This document shows, piece after piece, positions 6,001 to 12,000 of a stretch of 43,673 bases of DNA. Source of the DNA: Nitrospirae bacterium CG2_30_53_67 (GTDB lineage Bacteria; CG2-30-53-67); NCBI GenBank assembly GCA_001873285.1, contig MNYV01000120.1, positions 1 to 43,673 on the forward strand. Direction: 5' to 3'. The first letter of the stretch is position 1. Every line of letters starts with the position of its first letter. The position numbers were made by a program.

Positions 6001-9000
6001 GACGACGTTTTTGTATTTGCCGAATTCGAGATTGTCGATCTTCGCGGCATCATAAGGGTTCCATCCGGTGGCGAGGACCATGGCCCCGACATTCAGGTCC
6101 ACGGTCTCGGGTTTCATCTCCAGGTCAATGGCGTTGTAGGCGCAGGCTGCGACGCATTTTGCGCAGGCCTTTCCCTTGCAAACGCTCATATCGATCACGT
6201 ACCGCATGGGGAAGGCCATCTCGTGGGGGAGGTAGATCGCCTTGGTCTTGTCCATGCCGAGGTTGAAGTCGTTGAGACGCTCCACCGGGCAGGCCTCTAC
6301 GCACTTGCCGCAGGCCGTGCACTTGGCGTTCACATAACGGGGCTGAACCTTGACGCTCACCTGATAGCTGCCGTCACCGCCGGTCACCTTGTCCACCTGT
6401 GCCAGCGTGTAATATCTGATGTTTCGATTGGGGCGGATCCGCCGGAAGTTGATCTCCATGCCGCAGTAAGGCGGGCAGAGCTTGGGGAAGTATTTGTTCA
6501 TCTGGGCCACCCGTCCGCCCAGATAGGGGTTTTTCTCGACAATGACTGTCTTGTAGCCGGCTTCGGCCGCTTCAATGGCCGTGGTCATCCCGCTGATTCC
6601 TCCGCCCACGACCAGTATTCTTTTTTCCTCTGCCATACTACTCCTCCATCAATAATGATAGGTTCTTCTCCCCTTGAACCCTTATGATTTTACAAACTTT
6701 TTGGGAAATGATTCATTCTTTTTTACCTTTAATGTCTCCTCAAGCATCAGGATATATTTCAGGTATTTGAATCCGAATTTCATCAGCGCGATCTCGTCGG
6801 TTTTCATCTTCTCGACCTCTTCTTTATCCATATCAAAAGAATCGAGAAACCTGCTCTCAAAGATAAATTTCTTGAATCTGTCTATATCATAACTTGCCAT
6901 GTAAAGCATGCCCTGTTTCTTCGAGTCGAGTTGGGGCTGCCCGGAGGCATTTCTCCTTAACTGGATCTCTTTCCATTCCCTGTTCATCTCATCATAGAGC
7001 TCAACCCCCTGGTCGATCCTCCAGGTCTCGATGGTCCACTCCTTTTCCTCCTGATAACCGAGGCAATTAGGGTCTCTTACAAAAAAGTAGAATTCTTCAT
7101 TTGCCGGCCCTTCCTTTGAGCCGCTTATCATCATAAGCCCCTGGCCAACCGGATAATATCGGCAGTTGGAAGGACGGTCTTCATAGATACTACAGCCTTC
7201 ATCCGTAACAAAGGGACATTTCCCTTCATCATCCGTCATCTTAAGCACTGCGTAAGGATGTGAGGTCTTTTCATCAGTATGGGTGTATGTGTATCTATCC
7301 AGGAACTCTCCTGATGAAATTCCCAATCTATTTTTCATCCTTACGATGTCATAAGGCGTAAGAAGCACATCCGCACGGCTGCAGCATTTGCTGAAACAGG
7401 CGATACTTTTATAACACCCGAATTTGAATTTGGAATTCAGTGTGCGCTTAATAGGTTCTACAAGCCTTCTACTCAAAAACATGGTTTAATCCTTTGTCCC
7501 GAAAATGTCATTCTCTGGCTTGACCAGAGAATCCAGTTCCGCTTTTTTCTGGATTCCCCGATCAAGCATGCCCTCGAATGTCTTAATCGGGGGTCGGGGA
7601 ATGACAGATGTGCCGACTTATCGGCATGTGGGTTTTGACTTCAATAGCTTATCCATTTCCTTATCTTTGAGTTTAAAGATTTCCTCGTTAAACAGAGTAA
7701 ATCTTACCCATCTATAACCAAAATTCAAGAGTTCTTCCTCATCTTCCTTGATCTTTTCGATAACCTCTTTCTCTACATCATATATATCAAAAAACCTGGT
7801 TCCAAAAAGGAATCTCTTGAATTCACCAAGGTCATAACAGGCCCTATAAAGCAGCTTTGCCTTTCCTGAATCAAGCTTATTATTCTGGAAATAATCATGA
7901 AAGGTAATCTCTCGATAGGCTTCATTCATTTTGTCATAGATGCCGATCCCCTGAGCCTTCTTCCACTCCCCTGCTGTCCATTGTCTTTCATCTTCTCCTC
8001 CAGAGGCTGAACTGCCTTTGGCGGAAAATCCAAGACATGAGGGCTTCTCCTCTATTAAAAATTCTTCTTCTTTAGAAGAAGCAGGGAAGACAGGATACAT
8101 CCTGCAGGACCATGGCCTGTCCTGATAAATACTACAACCATCCTCGGTAACAAAAGGACAACTCTTATTCTCATCCTCCATCATCTTAAGCACAACAAGA
8201 GGCAGCCCCTCATCTCCTAAGAGCGCAACCGTATATCTTTTTAAGAATTCTCCAGAGGACAGCCAGACCATCTTTCTCATCCTCAGGACATCATAGGGTG
8301 TAAGAAAGATATTGACATCATTACAGCAGGTGTTAAAACAAGAAAGCCCTTTATGACATGAAAATTTGAATCTGTCATTTAGAGAGAGCTTTCGTTGATT
8401 TTCAGTATATTTTTTATTCATAAACTATTCTCTATAAATTAACGCCTTAAATAATGAGATGCTGAAACAAGTTCAGCATGACAAGACAAAAGGTGTCATT
8501 CCGAACTTGTTTCGGAATCTCAAGACCCTGAAGTCCAGGGTGACAATTATCTTATGTCATTCCCCGATTAAATCGGGGGACGGCGTCTGGATTGTCCGAT
8601 CAAGTCGGACAATGACGGCATTGGAATTGATAATAATATACTTTCGTTTTCCTTATGTGCCGACTTATCGGCACGATTGTTCCGTTCTAAATTTTTGGAG
8701 GGGCGGCCTGAAAGGTCGCCCCTCCATACATCATCTCATGGTCTACTATTTAATTAAACGATTAAACGATAGGAATCATCGGTCTTTCGATGGTCTTCCA
8801 TTCCTTTTTAGCTGCATCATACTTCACATTGATAAAGTGTTTCTTGCTTTCATCCAAGTCCGGGAAGTCCAACTTGTGGTAATATCCGGGCCATCTTGAC
8901 TCTTTTCTGGCAAGCCTTGTTTTCACGCATGCCAGGCCGACATACATCCTGTGGACAGCCTCCCAGGCCCTCATCAGCTCATGATTGTTCTTCGCAGTAT

Positions 9001-12000
9001 TAACACCAAGCTTCTCTACGTCTTCTTCCAGGAAACCCAATTTCCAGACGGCTGTCTCAAGCATCTTGTCGGTTGTCTCATAACTGGTCTCCCAGCTCCC
9101 TGCATATTCACCCATGATCTTCTGCAGCCTGAATAAGAAACTGTGCGCTGAGATATAGTTTGGATTCACTTCTGCGCTTGTTGTGTATCCCTTCTTCTCC
9201 TCATAGAGGGCAACCGGCTTAAATACGATTTCCTTGAGTTTCTTTATCGTGTCATCAGATACAGTAGGCGTGTAGCCCTTATGGTCATAGGCGTACTTCA
9301 CTGCTGACTTTGCTGCAATCCTTCCCTGCGCATGTGAACCGCTTGAGAACTTATGCGCAGATGCGCCTACGCCGCAGCCTGCTGTAAATAGACCCTTGAC
9401 CGTAGTCATTAGGTTATACTGCTCAGGGAATGCATCAGCGTATTCCTTGGGCATCAGGTCATCAGCGCCGCGGACCCAGGCGCCGCAAGAGGCGGCATGT
9501 GAACCGATAAAGCAGGGGTCTCCCAACTGAAGCTCCGAAGGTTTTTCCAATGGGTCAATATTCAGCGAAGCCCAGAGGGTTGCGCCTGCAATCGTCATAT
9601 CCAGGAAGTCCTCCCAGGATTCCTGTTCATACTTTTTAAGCTCTTTTTTCTGCGCCTTCGGGTCTGTGACCTCCTTTTTTATCCTCTCCGTTACCTTTTC
9701 CGTATGCATGAGCAAGGGCGACTTACCGGCCTTGGTTGCGAGGATCATCTCATAGTTTCTCACAGGAGTCGGACAGGGCTTTACCTTTGAATATGGCGCC
9801 CACTTATCTGTCTCTGATTTGTATGCAAAAACATATGGATCCCCATAAACATCCGTTGCAGGCGTCTTAAAGAGAAGGAAGAAGGTCCCGACGGGTCCAT
9901 AGGCATCCTTGAACCTTGGAGGGATAAACGGCACATCCATCTGTGTAAGCTCACCGCCTGCCTGTAAAATGAGTGAATAAGTTGAACCTCCAAGCCACGG
10001 CGGCATCCAGGACCTCCCGAAGCCTTCACCCTGAGACCTGGGCCTGAATACATGGACCGCGCCGCCCAAACCGCAGTAAACCGCTTTTGCCTTAAACACG
10101 TAGAATTTGTCTTCCCTGACGCTGAAGCCCACCGCGCCGCAGACCTTGTCGGTCTCTTTCTCATCATTAAGCAGGTGCGTAATATAGACCCTCTCAATGA
10201 GCTGACCCTTATCACCGAGGGCGCCTAATGCGTTCTTTGCCGCCTCTGCCACGATGATCTTGTAGCTCTCGCCTGATATTGCTATCTGCCATGCGCCTGA
10301 TTTAGCATAATTCCCTGCCTCATCCTTCCATATGGGAAGACCCCATTTATCAAAACTCTTGACAGAGGAATCCACGTGCCTTGCGACATCATAGACGATG
10401 TCCTGCCTTGTTAACCCCATCTGGTCATTCGTCACATATTTCACAAAATCTTCGGGTGTGTGCTGATCATGTGTGACCTTTCCATCCAATCCCATATAGG
10501 TATTAATGGCAGAAAGTCCCATGGCAACAGGACCGCTCCTGTCCACAGCGGCCTTATCTACCCAGGTTACCTTTAACCCCGCTGCCTTCGCCCAGTAGGA
10601 AGCCTCTACTACAGCGCCGCAGCCTCCCATCCCTCCACCGAGTATCAATATATCGGTATTAACAACCTCTGTTGCAAATTCTTTCATGTTTTCTCTCCTT
10701 TTTTATTTATTTTTTTGTCGGGAGCTCTTTTACTCCCAGCATATCCGGCTCTGAAAACAGCAATTGACTGTTTAAGTCCGCCACCTTTGCCTCAGGATAC
10801 CCCTCAAGCGCCTTTATGGAACCCTCTGGTGTAGTCCTTATCGGATACTTGAATCTCTTGATCCTTCCATCCCTGTAGGTGATCGTCCACATGATGTCCT
10901 CTGTCCCTCTCAGGGGAGTTGATGAGGCGCCGAGGGGCATAAAGTCTGCATAACCCCTTACATCCATAGCCTGCTGGGGACATATCTTTACACAACAGTA
11001 GCACTCCCAGCAATAAGTAGGCTCCTGATTGTAGGCCTTCATCCTTTCCTTGTCCAGGAACATCAGGTCATTCGGGCAAATATACATACATGCAGTCTTA
11101 TCCTGCCCTTTACAACCGTCGCATTTTTCTGTCATTACGTAACTTGGCATCTTTAATCCCTCCTTAAAAACGTTAAATTAGGATGACTAAATCCTTTCCT
11201 TATTAAACATTAAACAGAAGCGTTCTCTTTCTCCTCTTTGTTTGTCGTTCCACCTCCCTTCACGGTTTGATCGGTCTGTTGCATAGTTGTGAGCCGTTCC
11301 TGTGCAGGAACAGAGTTTGAATGAGCGATTTGAGGTAAGCGAGAGCGTCATAAAAATCCGAAAGAGAAAAATAGTTTCTAAAATTAGAATATTAATATCT
11401 TCTAATAACTATAGAAAGTAAAATTAATAGTTCTTATCCAATCTTTAGAAAATATTATAGGGACCTCTCGTCTACCCGGAACGAGACAATTTTATAAGAG
11501 ATCCCGGATAGGAATTAAAATACTAATACGATCAAAAACAGGAATCAAGATAAAACATTAAAACCATACATTTGTAATTCTTATAAACGTATTAAGATAT
11601 ATAATTATTAATAATCATTATTGAACAAACAAGAGTAGAACGCTGTTTGATGACTGCTTCAATGATGGAACCTTTGGGGGATGCGGCTTTTGATGACCGT
11701 CAATCTTCATATTACCCGGGCGGCCAATGCATGGGCCGCCCGCCCAGCAGATGGATATGAAGGTGGAACACGGTCTGCCCGCCGTGAGGGCCGGTGTTGA
11801 TCACGAGCCGGTAGCCTTTCTGATCCAGCTTGAGCCGTTTGGCGATCTCATGTGCGGCCCTCATCAGGTGGTGTAACAGTCCATCCGGCGCAGCATCAAT
11901 CTCGTTTAAGGATTTAAGATGGACCCTGGGAATGATCAGGAGATGTACGGGGGCCTGTGGATTGACGTCCCGAAAGGCCAGGCAATGCTCATCTTCATAA

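Follow-up and report, generated by a model that had tools for sequence, protein, structure and literature searches.

The genes for a key enzyme of sulfate respiration, the dissimilatory APS reductase, have in all likelihood been swapped in a groundwater sulfate reducer for a version from an unrelated phylum, which stands at the original operon position and behind the host's own control region. We analysed a window (the whole stretch, 43,673 nt) of this genome (G000; 95% complete, GC 0.531) and compared it with the sister species (G001), which is the one other species available in the genus, with one genome of a Nitrospirota class (G250), and with metagenome contigs from the same locus (L096, L097, L098), from donor-like loci (L099, L100) and from Nitrospirota-type loci (L042, L032). 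After the split from the sister, the native aprBA was very probably replaced in place, by a double crossover, with a foreign aprBA-ykgJ-ykgJ cassette. In-situ replacement is supported because composition, trees with an AU test, colinearity, the lack of a native copy, and independent assemblies and contigs over the junctions all argue for it.

The cassette and its native surroundings

The gene order at the locus is aprBA-ykgJ-ykgJ-qmoABC-sat, with HD and HIT genes upstream (Table 1), and the foreign segment occupies window positions ~6611-11157 (4.5 kb, minus strand). Both equivalog models, together with the genomic link to qmoABC, sat and dsrAB, predict AprB and AprA to be a dissimilatory APS reductase.

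Table 1 Features of the apr-qmo locus in the window
Feature	Position	Strand	Basis
sat (ATP sulfurylase), native	588..1811	-	Pfam ATP-sulfurylase and PUA_2; 96% aa to sister, dS 0.43
qmoC, native	1958-3166	-	Pfam Fer4 / FlpD / Pyr_redox (qmoBC); 83% aa to sister
qmoB, native	3129-5381	-	Pfam Fer4 / FlpD / Pyr_redox (qmoBC); 87% aa to sister
qmoA, native save ~first 8 codons (6636 down to ~6613, donor-type)	5386..6636	-	89% aa to sister
3' crossover interval CTGGT, qmoA codons 8-9	6611..6615	-	alignment of window, sister, L042/L032
ykgJ2-qmoA spacer and qmoA ribosome-binding site, donor-type	6637..6681	-	ATGGAGGAGTAGTATG as in L042 at 14/16 positions, unlike sister
ykgJ2, YkgJ-family Cys-cluster protein, 266 aa, foreign	6682..7482	-	PF03692 41.1 bits (cut-off 23)
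ykgJ1, ykgJ2 paralogue, 267 aa, foreign	7618..8421	-	PF03692 41.9 bits (cut-off 23)
aprA-ykgJ1 spacer	8422..8761	-	terminator-like GC hairpin 8691-8731; REP-like palindromes 8455-8620 (inverted repeats)
aprA (APS reductase alpha, 641 aa), foreign	8762..10687	-	TIGR02061 763.7 bits (cut-off 641.75), residues 12-641, full length
aprB (APS reductase beta, 147 aa), foreign	10707..11150	-	TIGR02060 213.8 bits (cut-off 135.65); C-terminal domain PF12139 119.1 bits
5' crossover interval, with aprB start codon and shared ATGCCAAGTT	11133..11158	-	leader versus coding diagnostic bases
AT-rich leader/promoter region of apr operon, native	11151..11711	-	aligns with sister throughout, not with G250
HIT, native	11712-12056	-	Pfam HIT; 91% to sister
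HD, native	12053-12709	-	Pfam HD; 80% to sister

The survey's finding had been that the four cassette genes are 82-94% identical to one Nitrospirota genome between sister-like flanks, at a place where the sister carries its own, divergent aprBA. Our comparisons bear this out. Identity to G250 is 91% for AprA, 94% for AprB, 88% for ykgJ2 and 83% (82.6%) for ykgJ1, and the flanking proteins are sister-like from sat to HD (Table 1). To the sister, cassette AprA is only 46-47.8% and AprB 64% identical, and native QmoB and QmoC (GC3 0.71-0.79) share 41-57% of their residues with G250. GC content is 0.39-0.52 between ~6500 and ~11750, versus 0.55-0.61 outside. GC3 is 0.40-0.56 in the four cassette genes (aprA 0.56, ykgJ2 0.51, ykgJ1 0.40), 0.40-0.55 in their donor homologues and 0.65-0.79 in native neighbours. 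All four genes have a dN/dS of ~0.1-0.17 against the donors (aprA ~0.1; ykgJ2 ~0.17).

By blastn, the window is colinear with the sister locus over 527-1942 (91%), 1941-6627 (84%) and 10822-12672 (82%), and the gap between the last two holds no more than a 102-nt match; 527-6627 and 10822-12672 fall on one sister contig (C30), and 12.7-43.7 kb is colinear with two others (C32/C31) at 84-93%. In the sister, 400 nt separate aprB-aprA from qmoA, and ykgJ is lacking. The order HD-HIT-leader-aprBA-qmoABC-sat recurs in the sister and in the family member G003, and the cassette occupies the aprBA position. The window's AprA matched seven of eight family genomes (G000 left out), all at 44-61%, and sister AprA is 84-85, 74 and 63% identical to that of the other family genera versus 47.8% to the window's. 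The foreign enzyme had been attributed to "this species alone": it is indeed absent from the sister, but the phrase amounts to one of the two species available in the genus, and to one of the eight family genomes with an AprA match when G000 is counted in.

The rest of the sulfate pathway is native. Two dsrA matches exceed the cut-off in G000, and these copies are 95/85% identical to the sister and 66/49% to G250; the DsrD profile had no match in G000 nor in any control genome, so that search is uninformative. G000 yields one aprA match, and tblastn with sister AprA and AprB, used to look for a native-type remnant there, returned the cassette only. The foreign AprBA thus appears to be the only APS reductase in the assembly, although, at 95% completeness, a second aprBA copy could lie on the unassembled part. 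Foreign genes at the native position, a discordant phylogeny and a native copy that appears to be gone together point to xenologous displacement in situ.

Crossover points and mode of exchange

The cassette had been placed exactly between the native promoter region and qmoA, with the breakpoint near the aprB start left unresolved. That breakpoint now lies within 26 nt (Table 1). Its upstream side reads AGGAGGG...AAAGATG as in the sister, where donors have AGGAGGT; its downstream side reads GTAATGACAG as in donors, where the family has GTAATCGCTG or similar; and the 10-nt ATGCCAAGTT is common to native and donor operons. The leader shares long near-identical blocks with the sister, matches no Rfam family and has a fold z-score of -1.27. 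The native leader and ribosome-binding site therefore appear, from these diagnostic bases, to join the foreign aprB coding sequence. At the other end the earlier placement did not hold, because the 3' crossover lies inside qmoA, at codons 8-9. The last donor-diagnostic base is 6616 and the first native-diagnostic base 6610, both crossover intervals being defined by a handful of such bases. The first 26 nt of qmoA agree with L042 (26/26), QmoA has one residue fewer at its N-terminus than in any of the six family loci shown, and from 6606 downward the gene matches the sister at 0.97 identity; the MAEEK N-terminus also occurs in G003, with one residue more and different DNA. The spacer before qmoA resembles neither the sister nor G250. 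With a crossover inside qmoA, the foreign piece would have brought the qmoA ribosome-binding site and ~8 codons.

We propose that, after the split of G000 from its sister, a double crossover removed the resident aprB-aprA (~2.4 kb and the 400-nt spacer). The incoming 4.5-kb aprB-aprA-ykgJ-ykgJ segment would have come from a homologous apr-qmo operon in a low-GC Nitrospirota-type donor related to G250 and L099. One crossover would have fallen in the ~26 nt at the aprB start, through the shared ATGCCAAGTT, and the other in CTGGT, carrying along everything between both anchors, including two ykgJ genes absent from G000's relatives. In the resulting hybrid pathway, the native promoter, leader and ribosome-binding site would serve foreign AprBA and two foreign YkgJ proteins, alongside native QmoABC (QmoA with ~8 foreign N-terminal residues), Sat and DsrAB. 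The foreign AprBA may take its electrons from the native Qmo complex, a putative pairing.

Such an exchange was presumably guided by homology. It is possible, if unlikely, that the replacement is real but arose by illegitimate recombination or through a mobile element since lost, with ends that coincide with gene starts accidentally or because a working operon was selected for. Each crossover has only a very short shared stretch (10 nt for ATGCCAAGTT, 5 nt for CTGGT) and donor and recipient qmoA DNA are only 65-74% identical, low for RecA-type exchange, as this account would have it; however, both ends lie at homologous positions of homologous genes (the aprB start; codons 8-9 of qmoA) and keep register and frame, and donor-type operons have the same order, aprBA-ykgJ-ykgJ-qmoA. 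The segment bears no signature of a genomic island or mobile-element insertion: no border repeats were found flanking it, the four window ORFs within it that reach 200 aa are all apr and ykgJ genes and include no integrase, and the nearest tRNA (13998-14072) is 2.8 kb away, where the stretch 13944-14059 also matches the sister.

Phylogeny, source and integrity of the segment

In the AprA tree (65 rows), the window pairs with G250 (support 100) within a Nitrospirota-rich clade of 49 rows (100), and on the opposite side a separate clade (100) unites the 10 native sequences from families f1 and f2. The AU test rejects a topology that puts window AprA with the natives (lnL difference 290, p 1.5e-36). 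In the QmoA tree (44 rows), the window pairs with the sister (98) within a seven-row family clade (100), and Nitrospirota form a separate clade (98).

These trees bear on the idea that the cassette type is ancestral, or that two aprBA types were differentially lost, leaving sister and family in the derived state. The genus is represented by two species only, and the nearest cassette relatives branch off as deeply as the sister does, which this idea would accommodate. We nevertheless consider it improbable: 10 of 10 other full-length AprA of f1 and f2 lie in one clade without the window, whose AprA is nested among Nitrospirota-titled sequences; the donor-like GC3 is kept at 0.15-0.3 below the neighbours; and the locus position is identical, with no second copy or remnant found in G000.

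Under replacement, G250 (83-91% identical to the cassette in DNA, with dS 0.35-0.9) would be a relative of the donor and not the donor itself. Since dS is similar for the donors (0.34-0.95) and for the sister (0.42-0.69) and the closest sampled AprA is 92-93% identical, the event need not be recent and the true donor would be unsampled. AprA of L099/L100 is slightly closer to the window (92-93%) than that of G250 (91%), and the best relative changes along the cassette, from L099/L100 for aprBA to G250 (82.6%) over L099 (77%) for ykgJ1; at the ykgJ2-qmoA junction L042/L032 are nearest, though AprA there is only 76-77% identical. The label "Thermodesulfovibrionia-type" is loose, this AprA type (at least 72% identity) occurring in only 21 of 301 sampled class genomes. 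The aprBA-ykgJ-ykgJ-qmo layout is also found in records titled Syntrophobacteraceae, Aquicultor and others. In the aprA-ykgJ1 spacer, the hairpin is common to the donors, whose blastn matches begin at 8685-8696, and the REP-like palindromes are missing in G250, the spacer being ~143 nt longer than G250's. One REP-like unit (8586-8616) has 16 other short-blastn matches in G000.

The metagenome contigs and runs were assembled independently but do not represent independent populations, and may stem from the genome's own sampling campaign. L097 (49.3 kb) reproduces window 765-18687 without a gap and with 19 mismatches; L098 does so for 765-10724 with 14 mismatches and L096 for 7301-12427 with 2. 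Logan contigs had been said to cross the junctions, and do so in 3 of 3 DNA runs, bridging both crossovers by ~150 nt or more: one contig spans 5500-6769 with zero differences, and one spans 10986-12800 (X1, 0 and X17, 6 other letters; X11, a 2-nt insertion). Cassette depth follows flank depth in runs differing twofold (X1, 30.6-43.1 vs 32.3/33.8; X17, 15.4-27.5 vs 14.5/19). Inside the cassette per-run contigs are short, and extra depth points to close variants within those samples (bins 6720-6963 reach 79 vs 32); spacer depth is 140-226 vs ~15-36 in adjoining bins, with many joints. An assembly chimera is very unlikely: that assembly or binning fused a host contig with a piece of Nitrospirota aprBA present in the sample is the least credible explanation, even with donor-like L099 and L100 among the metagenome records, given the reproduced structure or junctions in three separately assembled contigs, the bridged crossovers and matching depth, a native/donor identical run at the junctions (~10-14 nt) probably too short to mislead a 31-mer assembler, and a host-genome REP-like unit within the cassette spacer.

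An RNA-library run (X21) yielded contigs on the leader, aprB, aprA and ykgJ2 (7179-7490). The crossover from native leader to foreign aprB is bridged by one of them (11047-11256), and another lies on the leader (11320-11473). The foreign aprB is thus present in the RNA library behind the host's leader, in contigs from which a transcript start is not provable and DNA not excludable. The run has no depth at all over 5500-6963 (qmoA and the end of ykgJ2), 7696-8427 and 11600-12800 (HIT/HD), a pattern that speaks against mere carry-over of DNA.

The YkgJ pair and comparison with known systems

YkgJ proteins (CxxCxxCC family, PF03692) have no known function. Both cassette proteins are predicted members that keep the Cys cluster, with 8 (ykgJ2) and 9 (ykgJ1) invariant Cys in 35-sequence alignments; they are 41% identical over 257 aa, and may be functional in G000. 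Within the family, the apr-linked subfamily differs in its length of ~265 aa and its conserved helical C-terminal half; we found no solved structure or fold match for it. The cassette clade has a pair between aprA and qmoA, whereas loci titled Archaeoglobus, Chromatiaceae, Hyphomicrobiales and Acidobacteriota have just one copy behind aprA, succeeded by qmoA or qmoC where the record continues. Speculatively, and with a small chance of being right, apr-linked YkgJ might be an Fe-S/metal accessory (a Qmo-AprBA relay or second-donor adaptor, or an AprBA maturation factor) and not a hitch-hiker, which let the foreign AprBA function alongside a Qmo that has only 62% identity to its original partner. 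If so, the locus would amount to a natural domain-swap experiment on the electron path from Qmo to Apr.

Omelchenko and co-workers reportedly described, in 2003, xenologous displacement in situ, in which an operon gene is swapped for a distant equivalent and its neighbours remain vertical. Here two respiratory-enzyme subunits and two added genes are involved, and the exchange can be delimited to 5-26 nt at its ends, one at a start codon and the other within the conserved gene that follows. Lateral aprBA transfer among sulfate reducers and sulfur oxidisers is likewise said to have been described by Meyer and Kuever in 2007. In Watanabe et al. 2016 (PMC5099947), aprBA crosses distant phyla as a unit, the Apr phylogeny conflicts with the organismal one, and Thermodesulfovibrio/Nitrospirae-type and "LGT-affected deltaproteobacteria" clusters are distinguished. 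As far as such accounts extend, earlier transfers were inferred from aprBA trees alone, whereas this case shows the recipient locus, the native genes that were replaced (by way of the sister), both crossovers, the co-transferred ykgJ pair and the retained Qmo.

Neukirchen et al. 2023 (PMC10504309) give the synteny sat-aprBA-qmoABC, take Qmo to feed electrons to AprBA and find that AprAB and Qmo lineages group consistently. The window has the same gene set and synteny but, compared with the module as described there, is uncoupled, in that AprBA groups with Nitrospirota and QmoA falls in the host family. Both aprBA transfer and in-situ displacement are already known, and this case is a well-resolved one; its points of interest are the putative hybrid pairing of a foreign Apr with a native Qmo and the possible role of the apr-linked YkgJ.

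The apr genes and their surroundings

The survey reported foreign apr genes amid native flanks; composition, identity and synteny bear this out. Its interpretation, replacement in situ, is supported, with the breakpoints refined and the donor label loosened. GC content drops from 0.55–0.61 outside to 0.39–0.52 inside approximately positions 6500–11750 of the window, and GC3 is 0.40–0.56 for the four cassette genes, compared with 0.65–0.79 for six neighbours and 0.40–0.55 for the donors' homologues. Flank proteins are 80–96% identical to those of the same-genus sister, G001, whereas AprA and AprB are 46% and 64% identical. 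Comparison with G250, which belongs to the class of a Nitrospirota-titled MAG, gives identities of 91% and 94% for AprA and AprB and of 83% and 88% for the YkgJ proteins, but only 62% for QmoA. Alignment to the sister locus by blastn gave colinear blocks on either side of the cassette with only a 102-nt match between them; the other 31 kb of the window are colinear with G001 at 84–93%. In G001 and in G003, a family member, the gene order is HD-HIT-aprBA-qmoABC-sat, without ykgJ, and the aprA–qmoA gap of G001 is 400 nt. The genome under study (95% complete) carries a single aprA; no remnant of a native-type aprBA was found in it.

Features of the apr–qmo locus in the window
Feature	Position	Strand	Remarks
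HD	12053-12709	minus	
HIT	11712-12056	minus	
Leader	11151-11711	minus	AT-rich, 560 nt
aprB	10707-11150	minus	NCBI equivalog model, 213.8 bits (cut-off 135.65)
aprA	8762-10687	minus	NCBI equivalog model, 763.7 bits (cut-off 641.75)
ykgJ1	7618-8421	minus	CxxCxxCC (PF03692, YkgJ-type), 267 aa
ykgJ2	6682-7482	minus	CxxCxxCC (PF03692, YkgJ-type), 266 aa
qmoA	5386-6636	minus	followed by qmoB, qmoC
sat	588-1811	minus	

In a tree of 65 AprA rows, the window pairs with G250 (SH-aLRT 100) within a 49-row clade in which the nearest branches are Nitrospirota-titled, and which also contains Syntrophobacteraceae-titled rows, one Aquicultor and one Archaeoglobus. AprA of the host families f1 and f2 (n = 10) forms its own separate clade (100). 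Forcing the window's AprA into this clade costs 290 lnL units (AU test, p = 1.5e-36), for a group that was defined via kinship codes but named only once the tree had been seen. In a tree of 44 QmoA rows, the window pairs with G001 (98) within the family clade (100), and there is a separate Nitrospirota clade (98).

The two dsrA copies of the genome are 95% and 85% identical to G001, and 66% and 49% to G250; both are native, and the Apr step is the only foreign one among the sulfate-respiration genes checked. The DsrA proteins of the two dsrAB loci (C174:552-2842 and C88:3155-5432) are ~52% identical to each other. Since both loci are common to G001 and the relatives G003 and G004, they are a family trait rather than a transfer. 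A search for DsrD gave no match in any control genome.

Crossover points and route of entry

Upstream of aprB, the window agrees with the sister across the leader, as far as the ribosome-binding site AGGAGGG and on to AAAGATG; donor-type loci have AGGAGGT, and leaders unrelated to that of the window. From GTAATGACAG (aprB codons 6–9) onwards the window is donor-like, the host family having GTAATCGCTG or similar. The 5′ exchange, which the survey had left open near the aprB start, can therefore be placed within 11133–11158, an interval that includes the aprB start codon and ATGCCAAGTT, common to both types. At the other end, the 3′ end of ykgJ2 (~13 codons) and the spacer of 45 nt are unlike both G001 and G250. 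The ribosome-binding site of qmoA agrees with that of L042, a Nitrospirota locus, at 14 of 16 positions; over the first 26 nt of the gene itself, agreement is 26/26 with L042 and 25/26 with the L032 locus. Six residues stand ahead of ILVV in QmoA of the window, L042 and L032, compared with seven in all six family genomes shown. Given this donor-like start and 0.97 identity to the sister from 6606 downward, we place the 3′ crossover in CTGGT, at qmoA codons 8–9 (6611–6615). Judged from these alignments, QmoA is a chimera with about eight foreign codons, and the foreign segment spans at least 6616–11133.

Both ends of the segment lie at homologous, in-register positions in genes common to the donor and recipient operons, and no border repeats, integrase or adjacent tRNA were found. 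We propose that an incoming aprBA-ykgJ-ykgJ-qmoA fragment recombined with the resident aprBA-qmoA through two crossovers guided by homology, in which case the ykgJ pair would have been co-transferred because it is located between the two anchors. Entry by a non-homologous route would fit the very short shared stretches at the crossovers and the low identity of donor and recipient qmoA DNA (only 65–74%; about 65–80% across the exchanging operons), but with both ends in register we consider it unlikely.

The same arrangement is present in separate assemblies, possibly from one campaign: L097, a 49.3-kb metagenome contig, corresponds without gaps to window 765–18687 (19 mismatches), L098 to 765–10724 (14 mismatches), and L096 to 7301–12427 (2 mismatches). 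At least 93% of sampled words of 6000–12300 are present in each of 20 DNA runs. The per-run contigs described by the survey were recovered, with one contig covering 5500–6769 without a difference in three of three DNA runs, and a second covering 10986–12800 (no differences in X1, six other letters in X17, a 2-nt insertion in X11). Depth over error-free cassette pieces was 30.6–43.1 in X1 (flanks 32.3 and 33.8) and 15.4–27.5 in X17 (flanks 14.5 and 19), and cassette depth tracks flank depth between runs. That the cassette was falsely joined to a host contig is highly improbable, the sole basis left for such a chimera being that per-run contigs are short within the cassette and that the extra depth there represents near variants.

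The cassette spacers carry REP-like palindromes (8455–8620, 7608–7626 and 8655–8673). The aprA–ykgJ1 spacer is about 143 nt longer than that of G250, and depth over this stretch in metagenome runs is 4–10 times that of its neighbours, with many alternative joints. One REP-like unit has 16 further short-blastn matches in the genome, and a 19-nt hairpin, ATGTGCCGACTTATCGGCA, is present downstream of both aprA and ykgJ1. The unit at 8589–8618 was rejected as a host fingerprint: copies with up to three mismatches number six in the genome, one in G001, two in the Nitrospirota genome G033, and none in G250 or G003. It is not host-specific and therefore offers weak support only. Elsewhere, window 16890–17070 holds a dispersed element of ~171 nt (84 blastn matches on 59 contigs of the genome; >25 copies in G001) that looks MITE-like. 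Another dispersed element, about 260 nt long, lies at 18870–19160 and 20070–20260, with partial copies at 24779–24829 and 25798–25893; it has ~239 matches on 105 of the genome's 183 contigs.

The ykgJ pair, leader and donor

YkgJ1 and YkgJ2 are paralogous (41% identity over 257 residues) and have nine and eight invariant cysteines, respectively, across 35 homologues each. A ykgJ pair follows aprA in the cassette clade, and ykgJ is missing from the native loci of the host family. A single YkgJ-like gene, 33–60% identical to those of the window, follows aprA in L076, L068, L073, L078 and L026, records titled Chromatiaceae, Hyphomicrobiales, Acidobacteriota and Archaeoglobus, with qmoA or qmoC next where the record continues. 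The apr–YkgJ link thus extends beyond the cassette clade and predates it. The present case highlights the YkgJ-type genes that accompany aprA in several lineages. No literature linking YkgJ/CxxCxxCC genes to APS reductase was found in open-access full text. Structure and fold searches yield no functional clue: a predicted YkgJ1–YkgJ2 complex scored 0.02, which speaks neither for nor against such a complex; the YkgJ2 model (mean pLDDT 75.2) matched nothing in the PDB at E ≤ 0.001 with Foldseek, and reached a best Z of 3.4 in a wide VIA-align search; the YkgJ2 sequence had a single PDB match (E 0.18); a protein atlas search returned other PF03692 clusters only; and NCBIfam has no family for YkgJ2 and only a sub-threshold FliB match for YkgJ1.

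Among 14 aligned contigs of the RNA library X21, one lies on ykgJ2 (7179–7490), four are aprA pieces between 8743 and 10421, one lies in the leader (11320–11473) and one, at 11047–11256, crosses the 5′ crossover; aprB is also covered. Depth is zero at 5500–6963 (qmoA and the ykgJ2 3′ end), 7696–8427 and 11600–12800 (HIT/HD), although zero cover does not mean no transcript. This fits a transcript from the native leader that starts 323 nt or more ahead of aprB and continues into the foreign genes, a reading that is a hint only because contigs prove no start and cannot exclude DNA. The leader matched no Rfam family (best E 0.44), the predicted RNA fold of 11151–11480 is not distinctive (z −1.27), and a consensus sigma-70 scan gave no leader site, with fewer sites in total than in shuffles. 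Parts of the leader within 11380–11640 are long blocks near-identical to G001, above the adjoining coding DNA (82–84%); one such block, an AT-rich palindromic stretch, AATAATGATTATTAATAATTAT, may be an operator or promoter.

The nearest AprA sequences are 92–93% (metagenome contigs L099 and L100) and 91% (G250, L101 and L114) identical to that of the window. DNA identity to the nearest relatives is 86–89% for aprBA, 90–91% for ykgJ2 and 77–83% for ykgJ1, and the nearest relative varies along the cassette, being L042/L032 at the qmoA junction and G250 at ykgJ1; the true donor is not among the sampled relatives. The survey's term for the donor, 'Thermodesulfovibrionia-type', needs care: an AprA match at E ≤ 1e-100 is present in 249 of 301 genomes sampled from that class, but in only 21 does it reach ≥72% identity, the others being at ~53% or less. 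Relative to the window, the class of G031 (301 genomes) has at least three AprA types: the first at 72–91% (21 genomes), the second at 47–53% over nearly full length (many genomes), and the third at 47–49%, with alignments beginning near residue 114–128 (many genomes), a pattern also seen for the host family's native AprA. In G250 (L095:7970-8509) and the matching gap of L099, an extra 179-aa ORF between ykgJ2 and qmoA has only a weak match, at its N-terminus, to a model for MAD2 methyltransferase (33.8 bits, cut-off 720); the window, L042 and L032 are without it. Synonymous divergence (dS) from the cassette relatives is 0.34–0.95, similar to that between the flanks and G001 (0.42–0.69). The replacement appears to be later than the split from G001, although a recent date is not implied, and dN/dS of about 0.1–0.17 indicates purifying selection along the combined lineages.

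Comparison with known cases

The displacement of genes in situ is a well-established concept, reportedly described by Omelchenko et al. in 2003, and Meyer and Kuever are said to have found frequent lateral transfer of aprBA in 2007. We know of few examples, this one among them, in which the replaced state, both crossovers and the expression of the swapped respiratory enzyme are directly readable. Microbes of the sulfur cycle are routinely surveyed with aprA as a marker; the Nitrospirota-type aprA in another lineage shows concretely how such a read may point to the wrong phylum.

That aprBA has often been transferred laterally is established (PMC5099947). Both aprBA transfer and displacement in situ are known, and this new case is an unusually well-resolved one. 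Neukirchen et al. 2023 (PMC10504309) describe AprAB and Qmo lineages as grouping consistently together, whereas Apr and Qmo are uncoupled in the window. The combination of a foreign AprBA and a native QmoABC goes against this reported co-evolution, and therefore provides a natural test of the specificity of the Apr–Qmo interface.
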